The translations under genes and the position numbers were made by a program. DNA of 64,000 nucleotides from a virus. Taxonomy: Duplodnaviria > Caudoviricetes. Below the pieces are notes generated by a model, which was not told the DNA's origin, made no database searches, and saw nothing but the letters and a program-made list of their open reading frames with translations. Positions 1 to 18,772 of this stretch are shown here, one piece after another. The stretch's first letter is position 1. Every line of letters starts with the position of its first letter. The stretch lies in the IMG/VR virus record IMGVR_UViG_2885526491_000007, positions 1 through 64,000 of that record; one strand, given 5' to 3'.

Positions 1-1287
1 TTACAGTTGTATGAAATCTTCAAGTAAATAACCGAATTTCTCATATTCGCCTTTTTGCAGTTCCACTTCATAAATTACATCATTATCTTCAAATGTGGTC
101 TCAACCACATCACCAATTTTGTAAAGTACAGATGTAAGATCCCCACGCTCAGCCGGAATACGGAAGCGTTTCGTGTCACCAGTCAATTCAGCCTGGATAA
201 GCTCCCGAATTTTCTGCAAGTCATCGGCATCCAGAGCGCTCACTTTGATATGCTCTTTATCCAAAGGAAGCATTTCAAGTTGCTCCGGTGTACAAGCATC
301 CTTTTTGTTATACAATACCAATTGAGGCTTGTCCCCTGAACCCAGTTGCTGCAAAATGGTGTGTACCGTTTTCATCTGATCTTCACGCATTGCAGACGAT
401 GCATCGACCACATGTAATATAAGGTCCGCTTCATTCACTTCCTCCAGCGTTGCACGGAAAGCCGCAATCAGATCATGAGGAAGGTTCTGTATAAACCCAA
501 CCGTATCAGTGAGTACGATTTCTTTACCACTTGGCAGTTCCATCGTCCGAGAGGTTGGATCCAGTGTGGCAAACAGCTGGTCTTGAATATACACATCTGC
601 CGCCGTTAATTGTTTAAGCAAGGTGGATTTACCCGCATTCGTATAACCTACAAGGGCTACCTGAACGATCCCTGTCTTTTTGCGACGCTCCCGGTGCAGC
701 TTGCGATGACGTGTCACTTCTTCCAAATGACGCTTCAAGTCATCTATGCGGCCACGAATATGTCTACGATCCGTCTCTAGTTTACTTTCACCTGGACCCC
801 GCGTTCCAATTCCGCCACCAAGTCTGGACAAATTCTTCCCGTGACCCGACAAACGTGGTAACAAATAGCTCAACTGAGCCAATTCAACCTGAATAATACC
901 TTCTCTCGTGTTGGCGCGCTGCGCAAAGATATCCAGAATCAGCTGGGTGCGATCAATAATTTTGAGATCCAACGCTTCTTCCAGGTTACGCACCTGAGCA
1001 CCGGACAGCTCCTGGTCAAAAATAGCTGTTGTTGCTCCCATTTCCTCAGCCACTGCACGAAGTTCTTCCACTTTCCCCTTACCAATGAACCATTTGGTGT
1101 CCCGGGTTTTCAGGTTCTGTGACAATACACTCAGCACTTCTACGCCTGCCGTCTCCGCGAGTTTTACCAACTCCTCAAGGGAGTACTCCGGGTTAATACC
1201 TGAACGTTTGACCTCATCGGTAACCAGACTCACCAATACGGCGCGATCCTTCTTTACCATATCTGTATCATGTGTGCCATTTGTCAT
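1..1287 (-). CDS. hflX: GTPase HflX (host)
   Basis: GYTNAGKS, DQLFATLDPT, DTVGF, NKKD motifs; HflX N-terminal domain. Confidence 0.97.
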   Translation of the reverse strand: MTNGTHDTDMVKKDRAVLVSLVTDEVKRSGINPEYSLEELVKLAETAGVEVLSVLSQNLKTRDTKWFIGKGKVEELRAVAEEMGATTAIFDQELSGAQVRNLEEALDLKIIDRTQLILDIFAQRANTREGIIQVELAQLSYLLPRLSGHGKNLSRLGGGIGTRGPGESKLETDRRHIRGRIDDLKRHLEEVTRHRKLHRERRKKTGIVQVALVGYTNAGKSTLLKQLTAADVYIQDQLFATLDPTSRTMELPSGKEIVLTDTVGFIQNLPHDLIAAFRATLEEVNEADLILHVVDASSAMREDQMKTVHTILQQLGSGDKPQLVLYNKKDACTPEQLEMLPLDKEHIKVSALDADDLQKIRELIQAELTGDTKRFRIPAERGDLTSVLYKIGDVVETTFEDNDVIYEVELQKGEYEKFGYLLEDFIQL

Positions 1288-1406
1288 CGTGTATATTCAC
1301 TCCTTCTATTACGTTTCCGCATATATTCTGTGCCACCATGGTTCCATGGCATGCTTTAAGCCGAACCGGTTAACCCGGCCGGCTGCTTTAAAAACTATAT
1401 TATCGC

Positions 1407-1815
1407 TTACTTTTGATCAAACTTCAAATCCTCTGTGCGGATAGTCATCAGCTCCAGTTTTCCCGGATTCCCCTGGGTATACTGTTCCAATAGTCGAACT
1501 GCCTGATGGCGAATCGATCGTTCAATGGCATTTCGGACATATCGGGCGTTGCTAAACGCATGAAGAGACTCATTTTTTTCCTGAAGCAGATGCTGCTTTA
1601 GTTTGAGTATGGTCTGTGGCATGAGAATATAGTCACGTTCCTTGGCCATAATTTCGGAGATTTGAATCAATTGATCAATGCTATAGTCTGGAAATTCAAC
1701 CTGGATCGGAAAACGGGAAGGTAATCCGGGATTCGTCTGTAGAAAAAAATCAATTTCTTCCGAGTAACCCGCCAAAATGAGGATAAATTGATTCTTATTA
1801 TCCTCCATTGACTTG
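1407..1815 (-). pseudogene. spoVK: 3' part of host spoVK (AAA+ ATPase), cut off by prophage insertion
   Basis: KSMEDNKNQFILILAGY...NPGLPSRF...FSNARYVRN is the SpoVK C-terminal half; no Walker A/B upstream; spoVK-hflX synteny. Confidence 0.9.
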
Positions 1816-1841
1816 GCGATTGATAGAATCCAAATAAGAAT
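1791..1841. other. Prophage attachment junction (hybrid att site), crossover about 1815-1817
   Basis: Inverted repeat ATTCTTATT (1791-1799) / AATAAGAAT (1833-1841) centred at 1816, where SpoVK similarity and host composition stop. Confidence 0.75.
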
Positions 1842-3462
1842 TAGTAGAGTCACTTTCATACTGTTTATCATCTGAGACGAACTTATAGACAATTTCTAGT
1901 TTTTTATTGTCATGTAGTACCACTTTATCAACGAAGACACGCAATATTTTTCTCTTATCTTCCATTTTTAAATTGTTTTTTATTATCTTTTGATATTTAC
2001 TCAGTATTGAAACGGCTACATTGATATTCTCGTCACTCTCTTGAGCAATATGAATGTTGTAAGATATTGCAGCAAGTTCCTTGTTAAGAGCTTCAATCTC
2101 ATCTTCAACTGGCTTAATTTTGTTTGCTAACTCATCTTTAGATTTGATAAATCCATCAGCATAAAGGTCAATATATCTAGCTTTTGAGGCATCTTTCTCT
2201 CTTATTAACTTATTTAAATTATCTCGATTCTTTTGCAATTCAGTAATTTTTGATGCATCAGAAGCCCTTTCTAAAATTTTATCGATCAACTCTTTGGGGT
2301 TATTGATGATCTTAAGTACTTCACTCCATATTATAGTATCAATCATATCCACACGCCAGTTGTCTCCTCTACATGTTGAGTTAGACTGACCAGTTTCAAT
2401 ACTATAGGATTTCTTAGCCTTTCTTGTACATGTGTAATACTTAAGAGTGCCGCTTTGAGTTTTAGTTGTTATTCCTGATGATACTGCCGCTCCACATCTT
2501 CCACATTTAGCGATACTTCTTAATAAGTAGTCTTCTGATGGCTTGCCGCTGTTCTTATTATTGTCATCAAGACATTTCTGTAGTTTCTTATATCGAACCT
2601 CATCTATGTACTGTGGAATGATGATCTCCTGCCACTCATCCCTAGGTTTTGGAATTTGTTTCTTCTTTCCAGATACCTGCACTACTTCCGTCTTTCCATA
2701 ATAATAAATTCCTTTGTATGTTTCGTTTCTTAATATACGGCTGATTGTTGCTTGATACCAAATATCCCCCTTTGGAGCTAAGTATTTTTTTATGGCTAGA
2801 TACTCTGCAACCTCTGAGCAAGTTGAACCTTCCAAGATCATTTTTACCATGATCGAGTATCCTTCTTTTTCAGTTTTGTTCTCAATTAATGTATTCAGGT
2901 CTTTATCGTAATCGTAACCATAGATTTTGTTCATTCCGGGAATCTTGTTATCAGCAACCATAGCTCTTCTTCCACGCTTAGTGTTAGCAAGAATCTTAGC
3001 TTTGTTGTATTGAGCAATAGAACCTTGAATATTGTAATTCAACATTGACTCTGCATTGCCTTTTTGTAAGTCAAACTCAACGAAATGAAGATCGCATCCA
3101 AGTTCCCATATCTTATGTGTGATTTGTTGTTGTAAATGAAGATGTCTACTTAGTCTGTCTGGATGCAAGAAAATTACTTTGCTCCCTAAGCCCTTTTCTA
3201 ATAGAAACAATATGTAGTTGAGCATAGGTCTATTAGGATTGTCTCCTGATTCTGCTTCTTCTCTGAGTACAATAATTTCATCTTTACTAATATCAAACTT
3301 TGTTTTTGCTTCATTAACACATATCTCAATCTGCGATTCTAAAGAATAGTTGTCTATCTGTATTTCTGATGATACACGGGTATAAACAATAGCCTTGATC
3401 TTTCCGATCAAGGCCTCAATTTCACTACGATTTAGCTTTTCCATATCCTTTAAAACAATCAT
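1798..3462 (-). CDS. Large serine recombinase (integrase)
   Basis: YTRVSS catalytic motif, DRLSR, recombinase domain, CGRCG...YYTC zinc ribbon, coiled coil. Confidence 0.95.
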   Translation of the reverse strand: MIVLKDMEKLNRSEIEALIGKIKAIVYTRVSSEIQIDNYSLESQIEICVNEAKTKFDISKDEIIVLREEAESGDNPNRPMLNYILFLLEKGLGSKVIFLHPDRLSRHLHLQQQITHKIWELGCDLHFVEFDLQKGNAESMLNYNIQGSIAQYNKAKILANTKRGRRAMVADNKIPGMNKIYGYDYDKDLNTLIENKTEKEGYSIMVKMILEGSTCSEVAEYLAIKKYLAPKGDIWYQATISRILRNETYKGIYYYGKTEVVQVSGKKKQIPKPRDEWQEIIIPQYIDEVRYKKLQKCLDDNNKNSGKPSEDYLLRSIAKCGRCGAAVSSGITTKTQSGTLKYYTCTRKAKKSYSIETGQSNSTCRGDNWRVDMIDTIIWSEVLKIINNPKELIDKILERASDASKITELQKNRDNLNKLIREKDASKARYIDLYADGFIKSKDELANKIKPVEDEIEALNKELAAISYNIHIAQESDENINVAVSILSKYQKIIKNNLKMEDKRKILRVFVDKVVLHDNKKLEIVYKFVSDDKQYESDSTNSYLDSINRQVNGG

Positions 3463-3517
3463 ATAACATCACCTTGTTTTATTATTTTTATTCTTATAAT
3501 TATAACACTAATTTATT

Positions 3518-3679
3518 TTAATGACCATCTTCATCTGAGTATTTATTGAGAATATCTTCAATCCAACTCATAAGCCTACCTTCAATCTCTTCTTTAGATT
3601 GGGCATAATCGTTCTTATCTATATAACTGTCTACAACAGTGTATTCAGCCATTCTCTTTTCTCTGAGTTTAATGTTCAA
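3518..3679 (-). CDS. Small 53-aa protein, possible recombination directionality factor
   Basis: Not in ORF track; AGGAG RBS then TTG; MNIKLREKRMAEYTVVDSY...DEDGH; directly upstream of integrase. Confidence 0.5.
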   Translation of the reverse strand: MNIKLREKRMAEYTVVDSYIDKNDYAQSKEEIEGRLMSWIEDILNKYSDEDGH

Positions 3680-4265
3680 TTGTGACTCCTTTCAACTTGG
3701 TTCCATATGTATTAATCGCATCCTCTATAAAATCTTTTAAGTGGTAATGCCATCTCGTTCTAGGTTTAAATCCTTTAATCTCGATTCCTATCTCTTCGCA
3801 TATTGCAATTGAAATACTACTTTTATTTACTTTGCTTCTATATGTATGTTCCTTGATTTGATTCTGAGCTATGTTTTGATACTTCAAAAATTCTTCTATA
3901 TGTATAAAGTACACTTTGTTATCAGGCTCTCTGAAATTCATAATAAACCCTGATATGACACCTTCATATGCATTTGCTTCATTTAGTTTATCAATCTGAT
4001 GTTGTTTGATTACACTTTCTTGAAAGCTAATTGATTTATCTTTTGTAGACTTCAGTTCTAGTGTGAATAAGTGACTTTTCGCAAACATCATACAGTCATA
4101 GTCATTCTTTGTTACTCTAACTCGTGAACGAAGATCTACAGGTATAAGAGTGTCTTTCAAACGAACAAAGAACACCTTCTCCGCCCCTTGTGCTGCTGAC
4201 TTTTGAAAGTCCTCTTCAAACAACTTACCTTGATTTGTAGCCAATAAATCATTCCTCTCCTGCAA
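3669..4265 (-). CDS. recU: Holliday junction resolvase RecU family
   Basis: NQGKLFE, DYD, ELKST, HQIDKL motifs. Confidence 0.85.
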   Translation of the reverse strand: MQERNDLLATNQGKLFEEDFQKSAAQGAEKVFFVRLKDTLIPVDLRSRVRVTKNDYDCMMFAKSHLFTLELKSTKDKSISFQESVIKQHQIDKLNEANAYEGVISGFIMNFREPDNKVYFIHIEEFLKYQNIAQNQIKEHTYRSKVNKSSISIAICEEIGIEIKGFKPRTRWHYHLKDFIEDAINTYGTKLKGVTIEH

Positions 4266-4473
4266 TTAATCGTTTAGCGTCTACTGCCTTAAACAAACAA
4301 TCATATGTATCATGCACACAAACCCCATACACATCTAAAATTTCTTCCCCAATATTGATAGTTTCCCCACCAAAACAAGTCGAATATTGAATTATCTTTT
4401 CTTGTGGATCAGGGAAGTGGATATAGTAATAATCACTATCGAATCTATCCATTTGTTTTCTCAATTTTCTCAT
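4249..4473 (-). CDS. Hypothetical phage protein
   Basis: ORF in operon. Confidence 0.55.
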   Translation of the reverse strand: MRKLRKQMDRFDSDYYYIHFPDPQEKIIQYSTCFGGETINIGEEILDVYGVCVHDTYDCLFKAVDAKRLIAGEE

Positions 4474-4579
4474 TCAACAACTGATTAAGAACCGTTCCTA
4501 CAACCTCTGTGTATTCATCCTCAGTCAACTTACGTCCAATAATCCGTTCAATCTTTGATTTGCTAAGCTTGTTTTCCAT

Positions 4580-7500
4580 TTAAGTATTCTCCTTATTCTT
4601 ATACTTATTGTAGCCAGTGATCCAAGTTTCTGACTGATTTGTTTCAATGAAATTTCCATTCCCATCAGGCACAGATTTCATTTTTTTCTTAAACTCAGTA
4701 ATCTCAATTAAATCACCGATATCTATTCTTAAATCTCTATCCTTAACATTGAATGTCTTTTTGCTCATTTTGAAGATACGGGTTTCTCCTTTTTGAACAC
4801 CGTACAATGTCAATTTTGGAGAATACTTTGTATCAATATCCGTTACTACACACCATCCAGAACTTGTATCAGGATATTTGACATCTGCATAACCCATGTG
4901 CTCAATCTGAAACATAACTGTTTCATTTGGAAGAATTGCTGGTACTTCTTGATTCTTTAATTCAATTTCAATTTTCTTTAATTCTATGAGTCGTTGTTCT
5001 ATTGTTTTTTCTACATATGTTTTTTTATATTTATACTTACCATCTGAGAATTCCTTGAACAAGACAGAAAGATACCCATTGTTACCAAACATACCGAAAT
5101 AATTAAGCATAATGAGTATTTTTAATTGTCTAGCATTAACTGAAGTTTTTAGATTTATATCAACTAATAAGTCTACAAAGCTTTCATATGTATTTTTGCC
5201 AATCTCAAATAGTTCTTCGGCTACTTTTACATTCATGAACTTAATTCCTGATAGATCGGCATAGATTGAATTTCTCTTCTCATCTGCCACAAAACTTCTA
5301 TTATCAGTCCCAAACTTTATGCCACCATCTTTAATTCCGAATCCTTTCTGCATTTCTTCTTTAAGAAGACCAACCTTATCTTTGTTTTTTTTCTCTGAAA
5401 AATGCCTCAATAATGATTCATAGAAATAGATCGGATGGTGACTTTTTAGATATGCACAATATACGGAATCAAGTGCATAACTGTACGCATGTGACGCATT
5501 AAAACCGTATCCACTTGAATCCTCTATAATCTTCCACACTTTATCACTCATATCAAATGCTTCTTGTTGAGATACTGATTCTCTCTCAAGTATCTTGTCA
5601 CTGAATCCTTTTAGGAATCGTTCTTTTAAAGGCTTTACTACCGCTGGCTTCTTCTTACTAATTGCCTTGATAATTCCGTATGTTTCATCTGAGGGGAATC
5701 CCGCATAAGCAAGTGTAGCCATGGTCTGTTCTTGATATAGTACAAATGAGTTCTTCATTTCTTCCGTTTGAATGAGATCATCGAAACTGCTAATTCCATA
5801 AGCGAAAGGTTTTCGTGTTTCAAAGGTATGGTACATGGACTTAAATGATGGTCTGATAGCTGCTATAAAAGCTGTCAACTCAGATATGTTTTTAGGCTGA
5901 TATTTCATTGCTTTTTGAGTGGTTGAATATTTCTCAACCTGATTTACACCTACTGTTAGACCTTTAGCATAGATATCCCAGACCTTATCGTTATCTTTAA
6001 TGACGTTAAGAAGTTCTGTCTCTGAGTGTACGGGTAGTCCTATGCGTTTATATGTATCATGTGTAGTTTTAACCACATCAACCTTAAGCAAATCATTCTT
6101 AAGGAATTTTTTTCGTTCAGCAATATCGCCGTCAATTAAAGCTGCTATGACTTCTTTCTTTGTTGACTCACTTTTGATTCTGATTAAACCAATTTCTTCC
6201 TTGATATTTCCTTGGTATATTAGGTGTCCACATGGATGAGGTTTTTTGTCCGAAATGATTCCGGTGTATTTTTCACTTTCTTTGATTAGATGATGATACT
6301 TTTTATCAACATAATCATAAACATCGATCAAATCTTGCTCATCATCTTCTGCATATTTCAAATCATTTTCGTATTCCTCAAGCTGTTTTGAAACTTCGTT
6401 TGCAATCTCAAAATCAAGATTCTGAGATTTAGCATACATTTTAAATCCAGACTTTCTTTTGAAAGTACCGTATGCAATCATTGGGTATGAGTGACCTTCA
6501 CCTAGTACTTTGGTTTGAGCAGCAATAAATACTTCTGGGTTTCCTAAGTTCAAATCAAGATCGGGTAGGGATTTCGTTTCTAGGATACGGCTTTCGCTCA
6601 TAAATCTTTCAGGGTAGAGATGTACAGGAGCAGATATTCTATCTACTTTTGAGAATCCTAGCAATGTATTTGTATAGAACGAAACCCCAGACCCACGGCC
6701 TGTAGAGGTAATGATTCCGCCCATATCAACAGCTTCTTCTACTATCTTATGATCAATCAAGAAATAATCAGACATTTTTGTGTTTATTACTACCGAACCT
6801 TCTTTTCTAATCTCATCTATGTATTTAGCATGTTTCTCTTTTGGGATACTTTCTTTCGCTTCTCTCCATTTTTCATTCAATAGCTGCTTATATTTATGAT
6901 CTCGTTGTTCTTGTGTTAACTCTGGATATAATGTGGGGAGTTTAATTTCATTGCTAAACACCTTAATTAAATCAGAGTCATAATCATCAAAATCCATGAA
7001 AGTTAAGGTGTTCTTAATTGCTTTATCAATCTGTTCTTCATTTAGAATTCCTTGTTCTATAAACCGTCTTTTGAGTGTTTCTCCATCAGGGTAATCCATG
7101 AACCATCCATCTTCATTTTCATAAACAATACCTTTTGCTTCTAAAACCGCATCACGGTCTTTTGCCTGTTCGGGATAAATGAAGTGACTATCACATCCTG
7201 CAATCAACTCGATATTATGTTTCGCAGATAAATCTAGAATTTTTCTATGAAGCGTTTTCTGTGTGTCTGTGTGATGTGCTTGCACTTCAAGCATAAAGTT
7301 TTTACCGAAATAAGAATTTAAATCGAGAGCAATCTTTTCAATATCTTCATATTGCCAGAAAGCTATACAAGCACTGGTGACAAATACTTCATTAGGATCG
7401 AGCGTAGAAATCAAATCTAAATCAATTCGAGGCTTATAATAGTATCCCGTCTCGTTGGCTTCAGATAAGATACGATTAATGTCACGCCTTCCCTTCTCTG

Positions 7501-7777
7501 ATTTGGCAAATAAACACATATGTCCATTGGTATTATCCTTCTCAAATCGATCCTTAACCCAGTATGCTTCAGTTCCAAAGATGAACTTCAAGCCTTCTTT
7601 TTTAGCGACATCATAGGTATCAAAGTACCTTCCTTGAAATCCATGTTCCATACTGGAGAGAATTTTATGGTCAAGTTCCTTTGATCTTCTTACATAATCA
7701 TCTATCTTGACTGAACAGTCAGGAGTAAAAATATTTGAGTAGTCCCTGTGATTGTGATAGTTGCAAAATACACAAAT
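4580..7777 (-). CDS. dnaE: DNA polymerase III alpha subunit (phage DnaE-type)
   Basis: PHP motif NYHNHRDYSN upstream of the listed ATG, GRGSG, PDLDL, GYGFNASHA; start extended to ATT at 7777. Confidence 0.93.
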   Translation of the reverse strand: MCVFCNYHNHRDYSNIFTPDCSVKIDDYVRRSKELDHKILSSMEHGFQGRYFDTYDVAKKEGLKFIFGTEAYWVKDRFEKDNTNGHMCLFAKSEKGRRDINRILSEANETGYYYKPRIDLDLISTLDPNEVFVTSACIAFWQYEDIEKIALDLNSYFGKNFMLEVQAHHTDTQKTLHRKILDLSAKHNIELIAGCDSHFIYPEQAKDRDAVLEAKGIVYENEDGWFMDYPDGETLKRRFIEQGILNEEQIDKAIKNTLTFMDFDDYDSDLIKVFSNEIKLPTLYPELTQEQRDHKYKQLLNEKWREAKESIPKEKHAKYIDEIRKEGSVVINTKMSDYFLIDHKIVEEAVDMGGIITSTGRGSGVSFYTNTLLGFSKVDRISAPVHLYPERFMSESRILETKSLPDLDLNLGNPEVFIAAQTKVLGEGHSYPMIAYGTFKRKSGFKMYAKSQNLDFEIANEVSKQLEEYENDLKYAEDDEQDLIDVYDYVDKKYHHLIKESEKYTGIISDKKPHPCGHLIYQGNIKEEIGLIRIKSESTKKEVIAALIDGDIAERKKFLKNDLLKVDVVKTTHDTYKRIGLPVHSETELLNVIKDNDKVWDIYAKGLTVGVNQVEKYSTTQKAMKYQPKNISELTAFIAAIRPSFKSMYHTFETRKPFAYGISSFDDLIQTEEMKNSFVLYQEQTMATLAYAGFPSDETYGIIKAISKKKPAVVKPLKERFLKGFSDKILERESVSQQEAFDMSDKVWKIIEDSSGYGFNASHAYSYALDSVYCAYLKSHHPIYFYESLLRHFSEKKNKDKVGLLKEEMQKGFGIKDGGIKFGTDNRSFVADEKRNSIYADLSGIKFMNVKVAEELFEIGKNTYESFVDLLVDINLKTSVNARQLKILIMLNYFGMFGNNGYLSVLFKEFSDGKYKYKKTYVEKTIEQRLIELKKIEIELKNQEVPAILPNETVMFQIEHMGYADVKYPDTSSGWCVVTDIDTKYSPKLTLYGVQKGETRIFKMSKKTFNVKDRDLRIDIGDLIEITEFKKKMKSVPDGNGNFIETNQSETWITGYNKYKNKENT

Positions 7778-7876
7778 GGTTATCGACCTCCTTATTCTTG
7801 ATCAAATATTGATTTTATAGTGATTTCAGATGTGTGTTTACATAATCATCACCTCCTTTAAGTCTCATTAGAGACT

Positions 7877-8857
7877 CTACACAGTATAAATTCCTTCTAC
7901 TTTTTTGGATTCGGTTAAATTGGATGTAATATCTCGCATTGTAATTTCCATTAAATTTTGGCGAGTCATCTTTTCTCGTCTCTTCATCAATCTCACAGCC
8001 TGATGACGAATTGCTTTCTCGATTACATTGCGAACATATCTAGCGTTACTGAAATGAATCCTTAAGTCCTTTTCCTCTTGAATAATGTACTTAAGTTTAT
8101 CTGCTGCATCATTTGTAAAAGTATAATCTTTTTCTGATGCCATTTTTAAAGCAATCAACATTAATTCATCTGTAGAGTAGTCATCAAAGTTGATCTGAAT
8201 AGGAAACCTAGAGGGTAATCCCGTATTGATCTGAAGAAAGTCGTCCATCTCTATGGGATATCCAGCTAATATGATGATCAGGTCATCACTTTTGTCCTCC
8301 ATAACTTTCACAAGCGTGTCTATAGCCTCTTTACCAAAATCTTTTTCTCCACCACGGGCAAGACTATACGCCTCATCGATGAAAAGTATCCCGCCCATAG
8401 CCTTTTTAACAAGGTCGCGAGTCTTCAAGGCTGTATGACCAATGTACTCCCCAACTAAATCGGCACGTTCAACCTCAATCAAGTGGCCTTTACTGAGTAC
8501 ACCCATTTTGTTAAGCATTTTAGAGATAATTCTTGCCACTGTAGTTTTTCCAGTTCCGGGATTACCCTTAAATATCATGTGATATACTTGCTTACTATTC
8601 TTTAACCCCTCTTCACTACGATACTTATTTATTTGGATCAAAGAATAAATTTCGTAAATGAGATCCTTTACCTTATCCAGCCCAATCATTTCGCCCATCT
8701 CACTAAAAATGTCTGCTGCGGATTCATTATGATTACTTGTTAATGACTTCTCCTCACTTTGCTCTAATGGTGCTTTTAGTCCATCATCAGCATTGAATAC
8801 AATATTGATCCTTGAATCATTAACAGTAATTCTTCTGACGCTCTCGTCCACAGTCAT
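7877..8857 (-). CDS. spoVK: Phage-borne intact SpoVK-like AAA+ ATPase
   Basis: GNPGTGKT, LVGEYIGHTA, FIDEAYSL, GGEKDFGKEAIDTLVK, FSNARYVRN; aligns with the host fragment. Confidence 0.9.
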   Translation of the reverse strand: MTVDESVRRITVNDSRINIVFNADDGLKAPLEQSEEKSLTSNHNESAADIFSEMGEMIGLDKVKDLIYEIYSLIQINKYRSEEGLKNSKQVYHMIFKGNPGTGKTTVARIISKMLNKMGVLSKGHLIEVERADLVGEYIGHTALKTRDLVKKAMGGILFIDEAYSLARGGEKDFGKEAIDTLVKVMEDKSDDLIIILAGYPIEMDDFLQINTGLPSRFPIQINFDDYSTDELMLIALKMASEKDYTFTNDAADKLKYIIQEEKDLRIHFSNARYVRNVIEKAIRHQAVRLMKRREKMTRQNLMEITMRDITSNLTESKKVEGIYTV

Positions 8858-8871
8858 CACCTCGTTAAGAC

Positions 8872-8902
8872 AGTATATGCGACTGTGTAAGTGCAAAATG
8901 CA
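8872..8902 (-). promoter_or_regulatory. Putative sigmaE/sigmaK-type promoter for phage spoVK
   Basis: -10 CATATACT (8872-8879) with GCATTT about 16 nt upstream. Confidence 0.45.
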
Positions 8903-8934
8903 CATCTGATTTTATTGATTATAATCTATGTATA

Positions 8935-8950
8935 GTAGGCCGAAGCCTAC
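8935..8950 (-). terminator. Hairpin between parR-like gene and spoVK-like gene
   Basis: GTAGGC-TTCG-GCCTAC with UUCG loop; weak U-tract. Confidence 0.5.
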
Positions 8951-8951
8951 A

Positions 8952-9251
8952 TTAAGAAGTAAGAAATTCATTCAGTTTAGCATCTAAGTCGTCATTGTCT
9001 TCAGTATTATCTAAACTTACATCTTCCATGATTACTTGGTCTTGCTTGTCTAATTCAGTTATTGTAGTTTCACTAAATAACTGTACCCCTTTAATCATTG
9101 GCTCTCTCCCTGTATGACCAAATAAAAGTTGCCTTAGCGCTTCCCTAACTATATCAGCCTCATCATAATAGATTGGAAGTTTATCCATAGCCAATCGAAT
9201 ATCATCATCTTTAAGTGGTCTTAGGCGCGCAATAACATGTTGCTTCCCCAC
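8952..9251 (-). CDS. ParR-like ribbon-helix-helix adaptor
   Basis: VIARLRP...ADIVREALRQ, acidic tail; overlaps the actin-like gene. Confidence 0.65.
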   Translation of the reverse strand: MGKQHVIARLRPLKDDDIRLAMDKLPIYYDEADIVREALRQLLFGHTGREPMIKGVQLFSETTITELDKQDQVIMEDVSLDNTEDNDDLDAKLNEFLTS

Positions 9252-10201
9252 AATCGCACACCCACTTTCTCATTCCCGTTGACCTGATCGAGTTGACCAT
9301 AAAGAGATTTTTCTTCAAGTTTCAGATATTCATATATGTAACGTGCAGCTCCACCACCAATCATATACATATCAAAATTGATGTTTAAACCTTCAATTTC
9401 ATTCTGAATCTGTATTGCCAATGCTTTAAATGCTTTTGCAACTAAGTGACGAATATCTTTTCCTTCATATGTACCACTGATCACATATTTATCTAATTCA
9501 TAAATAGCAGGGGCAGTTCCAACTAATTCTTGTAGATACTTTCTTAGTAATTTATATGCTTTTTCTACACCCAAGAATAAGCTAGTTGATTCCTTCATTA
9601 TCTCTAGACCATCTAATCCGAGTAAATTCAATGTATAGAATCCTAGGTCCACAACAAGAATCTTTTTCTTTGCATCACCTTTGTTTTGGATTTTTCCTGA
9701 TTCATTTAACAGGTGATTCATCGCAATACCATAACCCTGAGGAACTATTTTATATTTATCGATGTTGAGTTTAACTTTATTGAAGCTACTACGACCTTTC
9801 TTTATCTCGAAAGGATTTGAGTCAGCCAACCTTACAATCATCTCTTCCATTTCAGACATCTGATTAAAGTAAAACAGTATTGGTAATCCAGTAATGAGAT
9901 TGAATTTTTTACTTCCGTTTAAATATCCCAATCCAGTTTTAAGAATAATCTCAGATGTCATTGCTTCGCTCTTTTGTTTATTAAGTGTGAAGTATTTTAT
10001 TTCACTCTGTCTTAGAGCTAGATCTCCCACAAACATTGTGTCCTCATAGAAAAAATCATTGGGTTTAATATTCGTATCAAACATTGGCTGTGCTTCTCCA
10101 GCAATGGATGGTTGGACAAATAGTTTCTTATTCTTTTTTCCTTTTGCCCAACTAAATCCAAGATCAAACACACTTATATCTTCGGTCAATATAGAAGACA
10201 T
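9221..10201 (-). CDS. ParM/StbA-family actin-like ATPase
   Basis: DLGFSWAK, PQG, DLGFYT, IGGGA actin-fold motifs. Confidence 0.88.
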   Translation of the reverse strand: MSSILTEDISVFDLGFSWAKGKKNKKLFVQPSIAGEAQPMFDTNIKPNDFFYEDTMFVGDLALRQSEIKYFTLNKQKSEAMTSEIILKTGLGYLNGSKKFNLITGLPILFYFNQMSEMEEMIVRLADSNPFEIKKGRSSFNKVKLNIDKYKIVPQGYGIAMNHLLNESGKIQNKGDAKKKILVVDLGFYTLNLLGLDGLEIMKESTSLFLGVEKAYKLLRKYLQELVGTAPAIYELDKYVISGTYEGKDIRHLVAKAFKALAIQIQNEIEGLNINFDMYMIGGGAARYIYEYLKLEEKSLYGQLDQVNGNEKVGVRLWGSNMLLRA

Positions 10202-12315: not shown

Positions 12316-12969
12316 TTATGCAAATGCTGGAGCTAATTTCTTCACACTACTTTTAAAATATTGATGCGCGGCCTGTCTCGATACATTCATTTCTCTGCCA
12401 ATATCAGAAATACTCATACCATCGAAAAAATACTTACGAGACACAATCTTCTCTTTTGGGGTTAATATACGTTCAATCTGTCCACTTAGTACATTGTCAA
12501 ACATGGAGTCTTCAACAGCAATCAAGTCAAGATGACTATCATCTGCCAATATTTCTGACAATAATTTTTCGCTGCCTCCTGAGTTTGTCTTGTAAAGATT
12601 GTTATCCATACTAATGCTGCTATATTTGCTACGACACTTCATACCTTTTGCTCTGGCATTTGCTGAGAACTCTCTTACTACCACCTTTGCTAAATAAGTG
12701 GAGAATTTAATATTCTTAGTGTGGTCATATGTCTCATAAGCTTTTATTAGTCCAACCATCCCCATACTAACTAACTCATCTGGTTCTTCAAGTGAGCCGC
12801 TAGTTAACGTCTTGTTAGCCAATTTGACTACAAAATGCATGTTGTTTTTGATAATTTTGTCTTTTAATTCTTTGTCTCCTGTCTCTTTTGCTAGTTTAAT
12901 CATTTCTTCATTGTTAAAATTTGCGATACGCTTCTCCAGTTTGATGCTTATTTTCATTGTCTCCACCAT
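12316..12969 (-). CDS. Sigma-70 family, sporulation-type RNA polymerase sigma factor
   Basis: Region 2 NMHFVVKLA...DELVSMGMVGLIKAYETYDHTKNIKFSTY; region 4 HTH MSISDIGREMNVSRQAA. Confidence 0.88.
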   Translation of the reverse strand: MVETMKISIKLEKRIANFNNEEMIKLAKETGDKELKDKIIKNNMHFVVKLANKTLTSGSLEEPDELVSMGMVGLIKAYETYDHTKNIKFSTYLAKVVVREFSANARAKGMKCRSKYSSISMDNNLYKTNSGGSEKLLSEILADDSHLDLIAVEDSMFDNVLSGQIERILTPKEKIVSRKYFFDGMSISDIGREMNVSRQAAHQYFKSSVKKLAPAFA

Positions 12970-13139
12970 TGACTACATATTTAATGTAGAATCTTTCTTT
13001 TGTATTGTTGATTTAAATGACACTTCAAAGTAAAATTAATCCTGCAAGGGTAAATTAGATGGTGAATCGTATGAAGAGTCGTTCCTTAATTGGAGCGATT
13101 TCTTTTTTTCTTCTTAAAACAAGTGTTTTATTAAAACTG

Positions 13140-14969
13140 CTATGCCAGCGCCAAACCATTAATCAGACAGTCATACAAGTCATTCGGTCTTTCTACGCCA
13201 TCAAAATTCATAAGACTAACCGCACGAACAATTTCTTTCAAGTTACCTAAGAGAAATCTATAGTCACTAATATCTAAATTCTCATCGCTACTCTCTCGAA
13301 GTTTGCTATCATCTATTACCGATCTGTCTATGTATACTTTATTGTTTATGTAGTCATGTACCGCTACAAATTCGTCTTCAATTTTTTCAATCGTATGGTT
13401 TAATACCTCAATTTGAGTTTGCTTTAGCACCATTACGTCACCTATGGCGAAGATATTTCTACTGAATCCGATCATCCGACTAATCATGTCCAATAACATT
13501 AGGGCTCGGCTTTCTTTTTTGCTCAGCTCAGTATTTGAGATGGATGCTTTAATCAAAGTGCTCTCAGTTAGTTCTGAAATGTGTACAATGTTTTGTTCCT
13601 TCCCCAATGTTTCTAAAATTCCACTTTCTAACTTATTCCTAGACACAATTACCTTGAGTTTGTAATGCTCTGCAATTTTAAATTTCTTTTCATGTTCAAC
13701 TATTTGATCGAATGATAACCAGAACACTGGTTCAGAGTCAAAGTCAATCTGTCGTCCTTTTCTTTCTTCGATTTTATCCTCATCAATTTTAGGTTCACTT
13801 CGTCCACCAGACGACCCTTCACTTCCATACCAAGTAGAAATACCATCAGCTTCAGGTGCTTGTCGTTTTACCTCTTGCGTGAATTCTATTTCTTTATGAT
13901 TCGATTCGGACTGTTTGGCAGCTTCTGATTTAATGAAAACCTCATATTGGTTGACGCTTCTGATCTCTGGATTCTTCCTTTTAGCCAAAGCTATCTTACT
14001 TAAGTATTTGGAATCATTTTCATTTTCTGTATCAAACACAAGGAATGACATCTCATTTTTCAATTTATCTTTGTCTGCATTCCATGAGATAGCATCGATA
14101 TGTTTTTCAATGTGTCTCTGTTCCCCTTGTAGGAAACTGTTATTAGCAAGCTCTTTGGTATATTCAGATATTTCCTTTAAAAATAATATGTATTTGTCAT
14201 CTCTAATGATGTCTTTGCGATCTGGAGAGGTTAGATTTAAGGTTTTATCATTGATGTGAAGATCGCCTTTAACATAATAGTAGTTATCAAGTTTCGTCAC
14301 CAACCTACCTTTATAAAACACTTTTAATTCTTGACTGAATCCTGAGTTCAATGCAATCCAACCTTGAATATTATCTGATTCAATTACACTAGAAAACACA
14401 CTGCCATCTGTATCAGTCAAATTCTTTTTCGGTTGAAGTTTATCATCACAATAGATATCTAACTCATGTATGTATTTTCCCAACAACTCAATTCGCTCTC
14501 GAATTAGAGATGGTGCTACTTCTGTAAAGTCAAAATTATTTAGTATCAATTTGAAACCTTCATATGTATTGTCTGTCTCAGTTACCTCTATGTCTGTTTC
14601 GTTATTCTGAATCATCTCGCCAACATTAAATACAATATGCTTGTTTCCCGTAAACACTTCAATATGATCGCTCACAGTAATGTTGCTGAAGAATCCCATT
14701 CCAAACGGCGACTCTGATTTTTGAATATCTTCATCCCACTCTGACTCAGCGATTGAAAATAGGGCTTGTGGATTGGCTAGTGCTTGACCATTATTTTCAA
14801 TCGTAACTTTCTTGTTGTAGTAGTCTATTGTTACATGAACCTCAGTAGCTTTGGCTCGTTGAGCGTTCTGAATATCTTCATCAAGGAATGACAGCTTGTC
14901 CTTGAATGTACTCTGTCGTAGCAGTTTTAATTGGTTAATTACATTAACCTTTACTTGAACATTACTCAA
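13140..14969 (-). CDS. GHKL (Hsp90/MutL-like) ATPase-domain protein
   Basis: EDIQNAQRA, ENNG, FGMGFFS. Confidence 0.75.
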   Translation of the reverse strand: MSNVQVKVNVINQLKLLRQSTFKDKLSFLDEDIQNAQRAKATEVHVTIDYYNKKVTIENNGQALANPQALFSIAESEWDEDIQKSESPFGMGFFSNITVSDHIEVFTGNKHIVFNVGEMIQNNETDIEVTETDNTYEGFKLILNNFDFTEVAPSLIRERIELLGKYIHELDIYCDDKLQPKKNLTDTDGSVFSSVIESDNIQGWIALNSGFSQELKVFYKGRLVTKLDNYYYVKGDLHINDKTLNLTSPDRKDIIRDDKYILFLKEISEYTKELANNSFLQGEQRHIEKHIDAISWNADKDKLKNEMSFLVFDTENENDSKYLSKIALAKRKNPEIRSVNQYEVFIKSEAAKQSESNHKEIEFTQEVKRQAPEADGISTWYGSEGSSGGRSEPKIDEDKIEERKGRQIDFDSEPVFWLSFDQIVEHEKKFKIAEHYKLKVIVSRNKLESGILETLGKEQNIVHISELTESTLIKASISNTELSKKESRALMLLDMISRMIGFSRNIFAIGDVMVLKQTQIEVLNHTIEKIEDEFVAVHDYINNKVYIDRSVIDDSKLRESSDENLDISDYRFLLGNLKEIVRAVSLMNFDGVERPNDLYDCLINGLALA

Positions 14970-15506
14970 TTAATTGTCCTCCTTTTTGGGAGAAAACATA
15001 TCAACCGCATCCACAACATCTAATTCATATTTTTCATTTTTGTAAAGTTGAGCTACACCTTCATTCATTAAAATACTCTTTTCCCACATGAGTAGTTTAG
15101 CGTTGTCTTTTTGTAATCCCTTAATCATATTATCGTTGCTATACATCTTACTCCTAATTGACTCGACAACTAAACCAGCACTCTTTTTAGCGTTTCTATT
15201 GACCAGATACTTTTCACCCCGATATCCCCTAGGAATATGAAGTTTGTCTGTTTCATCATAAAGACAAAACTCTTCCTTCGTTACTTCTTTGGCATCATCT
15301 ACCATCATTACAAAACTCATTCGATCCTCAATACCATTTACCAGATACCATTGTTCATTATTATCAAACTCCTTCGTAATGCTGTTACTCCAATATGTAT
15401 CGAAAGCCCACATAAGTCCATTCTCACTCATAGCCGTATGCACAATTCCATGCCTACAACCTGTGCTGCTATTATCAATCCTATAAATCGCTTTTTCTTG
15501 AATCAT
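14970..15506 (-). CDS. Hypothetical phage protein
   Basis: ORF with RBS. Confidence 0.65.
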   Translation of the reverse strand: MIQEKAIYRIDNSSTGCRHGIVHTAMSENGLMWAFDTYWSNSITKEFDNNEQWYLVNGIEDRMSFVMMVDDAKEVTKEEFCLYDETDKLHIPRGYRGEKYLVNRNAKKSAGLVVESIRSKMYSNDNMIKGLQKDNAKLLMWEKSILMNEGVAQLYKNEKYELDVVDAVDMFSPKKEDN

Positions 15507-15862
15507 TTCATCTCTCCTAATTTGATTGTAGGATTTAACACTGTCAACAAATCTTCAATCTTAACATGCGAATATCTAGCGGCTTCATATCTTGCTGCTC
15601 TCCAAGTGTCTTCATCTATTTCTTTGTCCCTAAACTCTGCAACTATCTTATTCATGAAACGTTTAGCATTTCGATTTATATCAGTGTACTCAACTGTACT
15701 CAATGGTATCGCACTCTGAGTTTTCTCATTGAATCCAGAGCAGATTCGTCTATCATAAACTTCAGTCTGATAATAATATTCAAGCCACTTAACAAATGCA
15801 TGTTCATAGTGCACTTGGCTTGGTGAAGCGAATATCTCATAATATTCACGATGAAAGTCCAT
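15503..15862 (-). CDS. Hypothetical phage protein
   Basis: AAAGGAG RBS just after palindrome site. Confidence 0.65.
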   Translation of the reverse strand: MDFHREYYEIFASPSQVHYEHAFVKWLEYYYQTEVYDRRICSGFNEKTQSAIPLSTVEYTDINRNAKRFMNKIVAEFRDKEIDEDTWRAARYEAARYSHVKIEDLLTVLNPTIKLGEMK

Positions 15863-15916
15863 GATTCGATCTCCTTTCTCTGTAAAACAGGTATTTTAAC
15901 TAGAACAATCACATAT

Positions 15917-16324
15917 TTAGTTGATAGTTTTAATTTTGACTGACTCAAGTTCTTTAACTTGGTTGCTCCAATACTCAACTTTATACTTAGCATATTCAAG
16001 TTCATATTCTTCTCGAAGTTTTTCCTCTTCTTCTTCAATATTCTCAAGGTAATCAATCATTTTTTGAATGTCGCCAACACCACTATGTATCCAGTAACCA
16101 TCGTAGACTTCTTTAATCTCATACGCTACTTCAAGGGGTGTCATGTCTCTATAATTGATACAATCTTTTTCAATATCAACCAAAAATGACTTCCAAAGAT
16201 CTTTAGCGTCATCTCTTCCAATTACAAAATAATAACGAGCACTTTCTTCTGATGACCCAAGTGTGTATCTGCCTTGTTGACAAGTTACTGTTACGAAATT
16301 CTTTTTTGGTTCTTGAATAGTCAT
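15917..16324 (-). CDS. Hypothetical phage protein
   Basis: ORF with RBS. Confidence 0.65.
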   Translation of the reverse strand: MTIQEPKKNFVTVTCQQGRYTLGSSEESARYYFVIGRDDAKDLWKSFLVDIEKDCINYRDMTPLEVAYEIKEVYDGYWIHSGVGDIQKMIDYLENIEEEEEKLREEYELEYAKYKVEYWSNQVKELESVKIKTIN

Positions 16325-16355
16325 AGTTTAATATTCTCCCTTTTATGTCAATTAT

Positions 16356-16646
16356 CTAATCTTCAATATCATCTTTCATCGCTTCCCATAGAGCATCAAC
16401 TAATTCTTTTCCTTCGTAGTGCCTATCAGTATGAAAAGTACACACATTCCATTTCCCATCTATAATACTTCTGCCAACTGTTACTTCGTCCAAATAGTCA
16501 ATCATCTTACCAATATCCATCTTCCTATGGTGATAATTAGCCCAATCTTTACGAGGGACAATTTCATTAAAAAATGAGTAGAATTGTTCTTCGGTCACTT
16601 CTTTGGCTTGCTTGGGCGTTATATGATATTTCATATGTGTCTCCAT
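16356..16646 (-). CDS. Hypothetical phage protein
   Basis: Coupled ORF. Confidence 0.6.
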   Translation of the reverse strand: METHMKYHITPKQAKEVTEEQFYSFFNEIVPRKDWANYHHRKMDIGKMIDYLDEVTVGRSIIDGKWNVCTFHTDRHYEGKELVDALWEAMKDDIED

Positions 16647-17380
16647 TAGTTATCCCATGGGATTCTGATTGCATATTTGTTTTCACCGTAATATGTAGTT
16701 GTCCATTTTTGTTTTGAGCACCACTCATTCAGATACTTTTGCAATTCATCTTTTCCTTCAATATTATCTAATGCATCCTCATGTAAATCTTCGGACTCAC
16801 GATCTAAGATGTCGTCAGCATCAAGAGAAAGACTTGCTGAACGAGTACCCCACACATAGACTGGTTTCGGCTCATCTGGTTCATGATTATCTTCCCATGT
16901 CTCAATGAATTCATCAAAACTTGCAAAGTAACCATCGCTGTATGGATAGTCGTCTGATTGATACATCCCCATATTCTTGGCAATATCATTAGTCGGATCT
17001 AATTTAATTGCTTTATCCCACAATTCTTGTTCTCTTACTGCTCTTTGAACATCTTTTTCATGTAATGCATCTGGGCAATCACAATCATTAAACCGTGATA
17101 GTTTTTCATTGCAAAATTCACACAAATTCACTACTCCTGAATAGCAGTGTCTACAGCTAATTATGTATTGATTATCGTAAGGAAAGAGTTTGCTTTTGTC
17201 TGGATCATCGGATAATCCGTATATTTTGTTTGTAATTTCTAATCCAGTTCCTTTACAATCATCACACGGTTTCTGGTGTTTCTGTAAGTCCTTTTTTAGT
17301 CCATTTTTTAAAACTTTAGATAAATATGATAATGCATCAACTGTTACTGTGACTGGTTTTTCAAATAATGATTCTGTCAA
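16646..17380 (-). CDS. Protein with DnaJ-like CxxCxGxG zinc finger
   Basis: CDDCKGTG, CRHC, CEFC. Confidence 0.65.
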   Translation of the reverse strand: MTESLFEKPVTVTVDALSYLSKVLKNGLKKDLQKHQKPCDDCKGTGLEITNKIYGLSDDPDKSKLFPYDNQYIISCRHCYSGVVNLCEFCNEKLSRFNDCDCPDALHEKDVQRAVREQELWDKAIKLDPTNDIAKNMGMYQSDDYPYSDGYFASFDEFIETWEDNHEPDEPKPVYVWGTRSASLSLDADDILDRESEDLHEDALDNIEGKDELQKYLNEWCSKQKWTTTYYGENKYAIRIPWDN

Positions 17381-17426
17381 AATGATTCCTCCAATTTTCT
17401 TTATTTATGTTATTCCCAGTTTGGTT

Positions 17427-18059
17427 TTATGTATTTGCATGATCATAGTCAATCCAGCTAATAATTTTTCTATACCTAGTTTCGCTAAAAAAGTATTTCT
17501 CCTTAACATACCAATCATAAAAACTGTGCTTCTTTTTAGAAGAGTTGCACGAAATACATCCGGGTACACAATTACTAATATCATTTTCACCATCGGATTC
17601 AAAGTGATCTCTATGTAATTGTTGTCCATATAACTCCTTGTGTTCGTCATCGCTCATCCCGCAATAGGAGCAAGAGTATCCAAAATATTTCTTACAAGCT
17701 TGCCACTCGCTAGATGATAATTTAAAATCCTTATCCTTTCTTTTCTCTCTGTAAGATTTGATTTTATCCTTATTTGCTTGCTGCCATTCTTTTTGTTTAC
17801 CTTCGCCTCTTCGGCGTTTCTGAATTTCATAGTTTTGCAATTTTCGTCTATGTGTTGAATCTATCCTGTTAATTACAGCTAAGTATTCATCATAATGCTC
17901 TAGATTTCTTTTTCTTGATCGTTTTACGGTGCACTGTTTGCATTCTGGATAATAATAAACATAATCTCCTCTAGTTTTACTGCTGTTAATTCTTGAATAA
18001 AAATCAGTTAGTGGTTTTACTGTGTGACAGGTTTTACATTCCTTCTCTAGATTTTCTAT
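17427..18059 (-). CDS. HNH endonuclease with N-terminal zinc finger
   Basis: CSYCG...DH...NCVPGCISCNSSK; frame open back to ATA 18059 (CKTC...CKQC). Confidence 0.8.
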   Translation of the reverse strand: MENLEKECKTCHTVKPLTDFYSRINSSKTRGDYVYYYPECKQCTVKRSRKRNLEHYDEYLAVINRIDSTHRRKLQNYEIQKRRRGEGKQKEWQQANKDKIKSYREKRKDKDFKLSSSEWQACKKYFGYSCSYCGMSDDEHKELYGQQLHRDHFESDGENDISNCVPGCISCNSSKKKHSFYDWYVKEKYFFSETRYRKIISWIDYDHANT

Positions 18060-18062
18060 GCT

Positions 18063-18389
18063 TTATTCTCCTTTCTCTTCTTCATCGTCTTGTTTTAAAA
18101 ATGTTTCAAGCCACTTAATGTCACGTAATAATGCCTTCTTTTGATTGTCGATTATTCTCTGAGCAACTTCAAATTCAATTACGCCCTGATGTGCCAAGTT
18201 CGACGTGTTTTTAATTAGTTGAACAGTGTCATCGATGGTTTTGGCGTAATCAACTACATATCGAATTGAATCTCTTGATGGTGAAAGTGAAGCATCAACC
18301 TTTCTTCTCTCCTCCTCTGAGTTGTGAATAGCTTTCATCCATGCTTCAGTTTGATCCACTACTCTATTTTTCTTATTTGATTTTGTCAT
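18063..18389 (-). CDS. Hypothetical phage protein
   Basis: ORF with RBS. Confidence 0.6.
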   Translation of the reverse strand: MTKSNKKNRVVDQTEAWMKAIHNSEEERRKVDASLSPSRDSIRYVVDYAKTIDDTVQLIKNTSNLAHQGVIEFEVAQRIIDNQKKALLRDIKWLETFLKQDDEEEKGE

Positions 18390-18772
18390 TGCATATCCTC
18401 CCTAAAGTTATTGTATCTACTTTTCAGTAAACCTTTACCCTTCAATCTGAGAGCATTGTTGCTTGGCTTAACAAACTCTTTCATACGGATCTTGCTACCA
18501 TGCTTGTCGTATTCCCAACCGTATTTACCAGTACCTTCACATTTCGGGCAATCATATGAGTTCCATGGGTCGTAAGGATATCCATACTCTACGCGGCGTT
18601 TACCATCACATTCTTTGCAATCTGGAAGATCAAACAGGAGAAGGTTTGGATCATCTTCCTCTGTATCAGCAACCAACCAATTGCAATATTCCCGTATATA
18701 TTTTTTAGTTTTTCGTGACACTTTATTGCATGATTTAGAAGAGTAGTTAAAATGTTTCTTCTTTATTTTCAT
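18386..18772 (-). CDS. Protein with DnaJ-like zinc finger
   Basis: CKECDG...CPKCEGTG. Confidence 0.6.
   Translation of the reverse strand: MKIKKKHFNYSSKSCNKVSRKTKKYIREYCNWLVADTEEDDPNLLLFDLPDCKECDGKRRVEYGYPYDPWNSYDCPKCEGTGKYGWEYDKHGSKIRMKEFVKPSNNALRLKGKGLLKSRYNNFREDMQ

Follow-up and report, generated by a model that had tools for sequence, protein, structure and literature searches.

A giant Paenibacillus prophage that splits spoVK and carries a full-length spoVK homologue

The stretch of DNA analysed here (hereafter, the window) is the first 64 kb of the 134,573-bp IMG/VR provirus record IMGVR_UViG_2885526491_000007. It contains one end of a prophage that is integrated in the sporulation gene spoVK of its host and that carries, about 6 kb inside the prophage from the attachment site, a full-length spoVK homologue of its own. 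The paradigm for prophages in sporulation genes is that they excise in the mother cell and rebuild the gene. On balance, the host gene and the phage copy both look functional in the genomes compared here, which would provide two routes to SpoVK activity and not a replacement of one by the other. In the reading that we favour, with a confidence only somewhat better than even, transcription of the phage spoVK in the mother cell would provide SpoVK activity while the prophage is integrated, with excision as a parallel route. From the sequences we infer sporulation-specific expression, complementation and mother-cell excision. In Bacillus subtilis, the mother-cell AAA+ ATPase SpoVK promotes the activity of MurG at the forespore for cortex synthesis; it is also part of a coat-assembly checkpoint, and without SpoVK cortex synthesis fails (Delerue et al. 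2024, PMC11513918).

The integration site in spoVK

Judged from homologues, the host is Paenibacillus and not Bacillus. The window opens with the host gene hflX, which encodes a GTPase (positions 1–1287; an open reading frame (ORF) whose product is 92–99% identical to the spoVK-adjacent HflX of other Paenibacillus genomes). This gene is conserved downstream of spoVK and serves as a marker of the chromosomal spoVK locus. A spacer of 119 bp separates it from the 3′ part of a host spoVK (positions 1407–1814), which matches positions 132–261 of the TIGR02881 profile (E 2.9e-45). The fragment runs from a first codon for Lys at 1812–1814 (..DTLVK/SMEDNKNQF..) to a stop codon at 1407–1409 and reads KSMEDNKNQF onward; a preliminary description of this DNA had correctly placed the cut in host spoVK just before this motif. 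All relevant elements of the window, namely hflX, the spoVK fragment, the integrase, the phage genes and the spoVK copy, lie on the minus strand. The host flank with hflX has about 46% GC, compared with 32–37% across the remainder of the 64 kb.

We denote the native host gene ‘type A’ and the phage-borne gene ‘type B’. The fragment is genuine host DNA, because a type A gene adjoins hflX in P. sp. QZ-Y1 and P. barcinonensis, where it is intact and its C-terminus is 90–96% identical to the fragment. A phage origin of the fragment had been suspected, since the hflX-adjacent gene of P. tundrae matches the phage copy (78%) and not the fragment (49%). This idea was rejected: when 93 species genomes of the same GTDB genus were searched for spoVK, about 80 of the 93 species carried the fragment’s type intact at that locus.

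The preliminary description expected the 5′ half of spoVK at the far end of the prophage. A search of the window’s own 134,573-bp record for this half found none, because the record stops inside the prophage, within a tape-measure-like gene, after more than 133 kb of prophage sequence. The expectation holds, however, in the closest lysogen, Paenibacillus sp. NPDC057886 (G001), which has the same layout as the window and is 98.8% identical to it in HflX, 99.3% in the fragment, 96.6% in the integrase and 96% in the phage spoVK. Here a single contig holds both parts of the gene, with 164.5 kb separating the 5′ half from the 3′ fragment. The prophage is a very large temperate phage, of about 165 kb in this nearest lysogen, and the window covers its right end.

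Comparison of the two junctions locates the crossover. In G001, attL and attR have exactly AAATCAATGG in common and differ in the bases on both sides, and the intact bacterial attachment site (attB) of QZ-Y1 reads AAGTCCATGG. These sequences place the crossover within the 10-bp core common to both junctions, AAGTCAATGG (attR core, positions 1805–1814), at the Lys-Ser-Met codons that follow the conserved GEKDFGKEAIDTLV stretch. Rejoining the two G001 halves in silico yields an intact spoVK of 323 amino acids. Five genomes of the genus have an insertion in spoVK at the Lys codon that follows DTLV and retain both halves of the gene.

The recombinase at the junction is a large serine integrase with Pfam Resolvase, Recombinase and Zn_ribbon_recom domains, which in its prophage form comprises 554 amino acids (positions 1798–3462); its C-terminal codons and stop are supplied by host DNA. 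It is homologous over its full length to the integrase of Bacillus phage vB_BsuS-Goe14 (41.7% identity, 100% coverage, E 5e-134), and the integrases of BUCT082/083, SPR and SPbetaL2 belong to the same family, at the same full-length identity level of 41.7%. Rebuilding the phage attachment site (attP) of G001 places it inside the integrase ORF, which gains 126 codons and reaches 680 amino acids, compared with 554 after integration, so that integration truncates the enzyme. The detached C-terminal extension is visible in G001 as a 127-amino-acid ORF just inside attL (L014, positions 4313–4696, minus strand), in frame with the integrase in the attP form; this extension may serve as a directionality switch built into the integrase. 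All lysogens have an intact integrase.

Insertion into spoVK has been described before. The SPbeta-like phage Goe14 and a prophage of B. subtilis BS155 integrate in spoVK at a Lys codon; their attP is located in the 3′ end of the integrase gene, and integration removes 131 amino acids from the integrase (Kohm et al., bioRxiv 10.1101/2021.11.22.469490). Goe14 and BS155 share with the element described here the integrase family, the spoVK target, the Lys codon after DTLV and the character of a giant temperate phage, and attP is in the integrase gene both here and in Goe14, with a shortening of 126 amino acids compared with 131. The differences are a core of 10 bp here compared with 3 bp in Goe14 and the Paenibacillus host. 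The spoVK insertion itself is therefore a further example of a published phenomenon, in another genus. A megablast search with 8 kb of the prophage genome and its flank (positions 1300–9300) against 50,697 phage records gave no match, and over the 8 kb compared the element does not group with Spbetavirus.

A separate spoVK 5′ half occurs on a small contig of the G001 assembly (C40; L015, 1,109 bp; positions 147–812, minus strand). It ends exactly after DTLVK (AAG), and the sequence downstream of it resembles the Paenibacillus attL. The half itself is presumably B. subtilis-like. A second Paenibacillus insertion was considered and rejected; the contig is most likely contaminant DNA of a Goe14-type B. 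subtilis lysogen.

The phage-borne spoVK cassette

The type B gene of the window (positions 7877–8851) encodes 324 amino acids and matches positions 3–261 of the 261-position TIGR02881 spore_V_K profile (E 2.6e-122, 406.9 bits), by far the best family for it. The intact, full-length and AT-rich homologue that the preliminary description placed at 7877–8857 is thereby confirmed, in an element of 32–37% GC, and its estimate of ‘roughly half identical’ to the host fragment corresponds to 54% identity over 116 amino acids (E 6e-40). The stop codon occupies 7877–7879. The probable start is the GTG at 8849–8851, because chromosomal type B genes (see below) have ATA or ATT at the position of the window’s alternative ATG (8855–8857); the frame is open to 8905. 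The product contains an AAA domain (PF00004, E 9e-20) followed by an AAA_lid_6 domain (PF17866, E 2.1e-16), with Walker A (GNPGTGKT) and Walker B (ILFIDEAY) motifs intact.

Immediately upstream, the gene is preceded by a ribosome-binding site, GAGGTG (positions 8858–8863), which abuts a sigmaE-like promoter motif, GCATTTT-N15-CATATACT (positions 8872–8901), assigned by its position and its conservation. The motif resembles what we take to be the B. subtilis sigmaE consensus. The spacing of GCAT (−35) and CATATACT (−10) is constant among phage copies and chromosomal type B genes, whereas the intervening and surrounding sequence has diverged, and these conserved blocks occur among genes with saturated synonymous sites. 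P. hubeiensis departs from this pattern, with CATATAAT as its −10 block and no conserved GCAT at −35. The native type A gene has a sigmaE-like motif of its own, TAATATT-N14-AATACATT. Further upstream, between the stop codon of the preceding gene and the promoter motif, a GC-rich hairpin (GTAGGC-TTCG-GCCTAC, positions 8935–8950) is identical across six related prophages and looks like a terminator that insulates the spoVK cassette.

The phage copy is under strong purifying selection. Copies in related prophages are 74–96% identical to that of the window, and the ratio of nonsynonymous to synonymous substitutions per site (dN/dS) is 0.02–0.055 in pairwise comparisons among phage copies, at a synonymous divergence (dS) above 1, where synonymous sites are near or past saturation. 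This pattern bears on the idea that the copy is a passive passenger without a role, acquired by illegitimate recombination or imprecise excision. Such an origin would suit its location only 6 kb from the attachment site, and phage genomes do carry captured host genes. We nevertheless consider it highly improbable: the low dN/dS extends, with synonymous sites saturated, across prophages whose integrases are only 49–77% identical; the promoter-like blocks and the hairpin are conserved; and the copy, which has phage genes on both flanks, is only 64% identical to the local host gene.

In the reading that we favour, a large serine integrase of the Goe14 family has inserted the phage into the native Paenibacillus spoVK through the 10-bp core and, with attP within its own gene, has been shortened by integration from about 680 to 554 amino acids. 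The prophage holds a self-contained cassette made up of the upstream hairpin, the sigmaE-like motif, the ribosome-binding site and the 324-amino-acid SpoVK-type AAA+ ATPase. In a sporulating cell, the mother cell would transcribe the phage spoVK, its product would provide SpoVK activity, and the lysogen could complete spores, with the prophage inside them, even if the prophage remained integrated. The host halves are kept intact and rejoinable by excision, and the phage copy looks like a second route or back-up and not like a substitute for excision.

The preliminary description pointed out that the codons equivalent to the attachment site differ, and this difference is real: the phage copy reads GTG AAA GTT ATG, compared with GCC/GTA AAG TCA ATG at the junction (AAG TCA ATG in that description). 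The phage copy would make a poor attB, agreeing with the core at 7 of its 10 bases and with the surrounding sequence at 40 of 60; this fits the suggestion that the codon difference may bar self-integration.

Lysogens with two spoVK genes

The association of the cargo with the insertion was examined in seven lysogens with a split spoVK: G001, G062, G037, G069, G029, the window and the IMG/VR provirus L012. All seven carry an extra spoVK (5/5 among the 93 genus genomes, together with the window and L012), and six share the order hflX, 3′ fragment, integrase, polymerase, spoVK, ParM. Their integrases are only 49–97% identical to one another, so that the cargo is a family trait and not the property of one clone. 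Outside this lineage, Goe14, BUCT082/083, SPR and SPbetaL2, which have integrases of the same family, gave no spoVK match; a full-length spoVK is carried by the Paenibacillus phage lineage and not by the Goe14-type phages.

The two halves of the host gene have been kept without defects and rejoin cleanly in silico. When the window is compared with G001, hflX has a dS of 0.21, the 3′ fragment 0.24, the integrase 0.27 and the phage spoVK 0.36; the values for G037 and G069 are 1.18 (hflX), 1.36 (integrase) and 1.26 (phage spoVK). Matching host and phage values of this kind would be expected under vertical co-inheritance of the prophage. Independent recent integrations also occur, and these could mimic conservation of the split halves: the hosts of G062 and L012 differ by an hflX dS of 0.35, yet their integrases differ by a dN of 0.23 and therefore belong to different phages.

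Several observations weigh against the reading in which the phage copy stands in for the host gene. The interrupted 3′ half shows a dN/dS of 0.008–0.03 between lysogens (0.013 for the window and G001, 0.008 for G037 and G069). A dead fragment would not show values of 0.013 and 0.008, which suggests that the host gene is still in use; a conserved split half would be unexpected if the phage copy had made the host gene dispensable. At 406.9 bits, the type B copy also falls below the curated NCBIfam equivalog cut-off of 422.95 for TIGR02881. The promoter motif is not rarer than chance in the 64-kb window, with 2 occurrences found and 1.5 expected, and for this reason only its position and conservation carry weight. 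In P. barcinonensis and QZ-Y1, whose own spoVK is intact, related prophages inserted in ytfJ have the same spoVK copy. Finally, an in-frame TAA interrupts the conserved KTR(D)LVKK stretch of the G029 copy, which is either a pseudogene or the product of a sequencing error; this gene (L023, positions 3540–4538, minus strand) lies at the opposite end of its prophage, next to attL, and forms a separate branch at 62–63% identity.

The ytfJ-inserted relatives delimit the association further. Since they carry the copy beside an intact host spoVK, the cargo is not specific to spoVK insertion, and the co-occurrence that the preliminary description proposed to test runs in one direction: every split-spoVK lysogen examined has the copy, and two prophages inserted elsewhere have it too. 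Their junctions (L006, positions 15535–17480, in QZ-Y1, and L005, positions 15700–17625, in P. barcinonensis) hold a fragment that matches Spore_YtfJ. The insertion falls after about codon 33 of ytfJ, with host homology resuming at ..ETPDGTV, upstream of dacB-like and spmA/spmB-like genes, and uses a different serine recombinase of 495–500 amino acids. A second ytfJ was sought in P. barcinonensis and QZ-Y1 and none was found, and a general rule that every phage of this family brings a second copy of its target gene was rejected on these ytfJ-inserted relatives. Their spoVK copies nest within the clade of spoVK-inserted phages and may be the legacy of an integration-module swap.

These observations lend weight to an alternative in which excision rebuilds the host spoVK in the mother cell and the phage copy is sporulation-modulating cargo independent of the insertion site. 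In that role the copy might strengthen cortex synthesis or alter its timing, or it might bypass the coat checkpoint that depends on SpoVK, and cells with the phage would finish their spores wherever it had inserted. This alternative would accord with host halves that are intact, rejoinable and, in comparisons of lysogens in which phage and host have diverged equally, under purifying selection, as it would with the retention of the copy beside an intact host gene in the ytfJ-inserted relatives, the persistence of G029 despite the nonsense codon in its copy, and the occupation of spoVK by Goe14-type Bacillus phages that have no copy. The participation of SpoVK in a developmental checkpoint (PMC11513918) is also in its favour. 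Against this stand the presence of the copy in all seven spoVK-split lysogens and the nested position of the ytfJ copies, which may reflect a module swap; in addition, neither a recombination directionality factor nor a sporulation-controlled excision signal was identified. We regard this alternative as possible but doubtful.

It is unlikely, in our estimate, that the split is irreversible and that the lysogen has switched to the phage allele, leaving a domesticated prophage beside halves that look conserved only through recency. Full replacement of type A by type B in five species would accord with such a switch, as would the repeated recent integrations seen when G062 and the L012 host carry different phages. 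The integrase, however, is intact in every lysogen, and in the pair G037 and G069 the host dS of 1.18 matches the phage dS of 1.26–1.36, yet the dN of the host fragment is 0.023.

Returning to the favoured reading of two parallel routes, we find that the central proposal of the preliminary description, complementation in trans instead of excision, divides into two parts. Provision of SpoVK in trans is plausible in view of the purifying selection, the promoter motif, the presence of the copy in 7/7 lysogens and the type B genes that are the sole spoVK of some species. The words ‘instead of excision’ fare less well, with halves that are intact, rejoin to 323 amino acids and show a dN/dS of 0.008–0.03, a pattern that suggests excision is still used.

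Chromosomal type B genes, precedents and neighbouring genes

Within the genus, about 80 of the 93 species have a single type A spoVK, 62–65% identical to the phage copy. Five species, P. tundrae, P. sp. ACRSA, G048, G051 and P. hubeiensis, have a type B gene as their sole spoVK. Its identity is 75–79% with the phage copy and about 57% with the native type; in P. tundrae, ACRSA and P. hubeiensis it is only about 49% with the host fragment. In each case the gene is hflX-adjacent (positions 10001–10996 of L008 in P. tundrae; also L007, L009, L025 and L026), and both flanks are syntenic with type A genomes; the replaced segment begins about 124 bp ahead of the start codon and ends 22 bp short of the stop codon. 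The phylogeny of the copies that the preliminary description called for places the chromosomal type B genes within the diversity of phage copies (99/97 support). A single clade of the eight phage copies excluding chromosomal type B is rejected by the approximately unbiased (AU) test (p 0.009, for a group named after the tree had been seen), whereas monophyly of chromosomal type B is not (p 0.20).

Because type A is the genus-wide state, the simplest reading of these trees is that a phage-lineage gene replaced the host spoVK in those five species. GC content was considered as an indicator of the direction of replacement and is not decisive: chromosomal type B genes have 38.6–39.9% GC compared with 43.7–45.1% in the neighbouring hflX, and GC at third codon positions (GC3) does not separate the genes. 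As the sole spoVK at the chromosomal locus in five species, type B can probably serve Paenibacillus as its only spoVK, and the phage-type gene is accordingly probably competent as SpoVK.

The chromosomal type B allele shares with attB 6 of the 10 core bases and 35 of the 60 bases around them; species with this allele would have lost the phage landing site, because the allele lacks the attB core. We tentatively extend the argument, as a possibility that we hold at rather less than even, to a phage-type spoVK that is an attachment-site-free mobile allele: it would let a giant prophage reside cheaply in an essential gene of cortex synthesis, as one of two safeguards beside excision, and would have replaced the native gene in several species, removing the landing site of the phage family. 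In the P. tundrae group the apparent replacement would be a case of phage cargo turned core developmental gene, and if replacement also deletes the phage’s own landing site, the result would be a compact phage–host co-evolution at one locus.

Other elements are known to interrupt sporulation genes. SPbeta in spsM, phi3T in kamA and skin in sigK are all rejoined in the mother cell. Like the element described here, they have a large serine recombinase at the junction and split a mother-cell sporulation gene into intact, rejoinable halves; unlike it, they restore the gene by excision only and are not known to have a spare copy. A different remedy is found in prophages of the tRNA-gene or glnA type, which carry a replacement 3′ end of the target gene. 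These prophages also offset the damage of their own insertion, but they restore the target at the junction, whereas here an entire paralogue, divergent (64% identity) and with a putative promoter of its own, lies 6 kb within the prophage. SpoVK-type AAA+ ATPases also occur in Bacillus phage G (gp596) and Brevibacillus phage Emery, at 35–41% identity to the window copy. The report on phage G found no other phage with a homologue (PMC12484599). Phage G and Emery are not known to interrupt spoVK, whereas the window copy falls in a spoVK lineage of Paenibacillus and occurs together with a disrupted host gene.

Our literature search found no paper on a prophage that combines a split host spoVK with a full-length copy of its own, and none on a phage-type spoVK that replaced the chromosomal gene. 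If the favoured reading is true, a long-conserved spoVK with its own promoter, carried by the phage that breaks the gene, would represent a second way of coping with a gene split by insertion, and would add a clear case to the few sporulation genes of phages whose role can be defined. The biochemical function of SpoVK, in MurG activity at the forespore, was itself described only in 2024.

The remaining genes around the cassette are of phage type. Between the integrase and spoVK lie a RecU-like gene (positions 3669–4265; PF03838 RecU, E 5.8e-8), whose position is kept in related prophages, and a gene for a DNA polymerase III alpha-type protein (positions 4580–7651) that is nearest to the polymerases of Geobacillus virus E3, Psychrobacillus phage Perkons and 160-kb Bacillus siphoviruses (40–43% identity). 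At the same position, the polymerase is 88–95% identical to that of the window in L004 and G037 and about 31% identical in L005, L006, L012, L020 and L022. The flanking spoVK and RecU-like genes remain similar, and this distribution indicates a swap of replication modules within the phage family. Upstream of the cassette is an actin-like (ParM/actin-like protein (ALP)) gene (positions 9221–10201; PF17989 ALP_N, E 3.5e-17), with a gene order that is kept in relatives, and an ORF of 99 amino acids lies between it and the phage spoVK. At the other end of the record (positions 116000–134573), the tape-measure-like gene is in pieces (local positions 12592–14046, 14267–14641, 14770–15906 and 16127–18574), the last of which contains the record end. 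An ORF of 378 amino acids, of unknown type, lies between these pieces and could be an intron or homing-endonuclease insertion.

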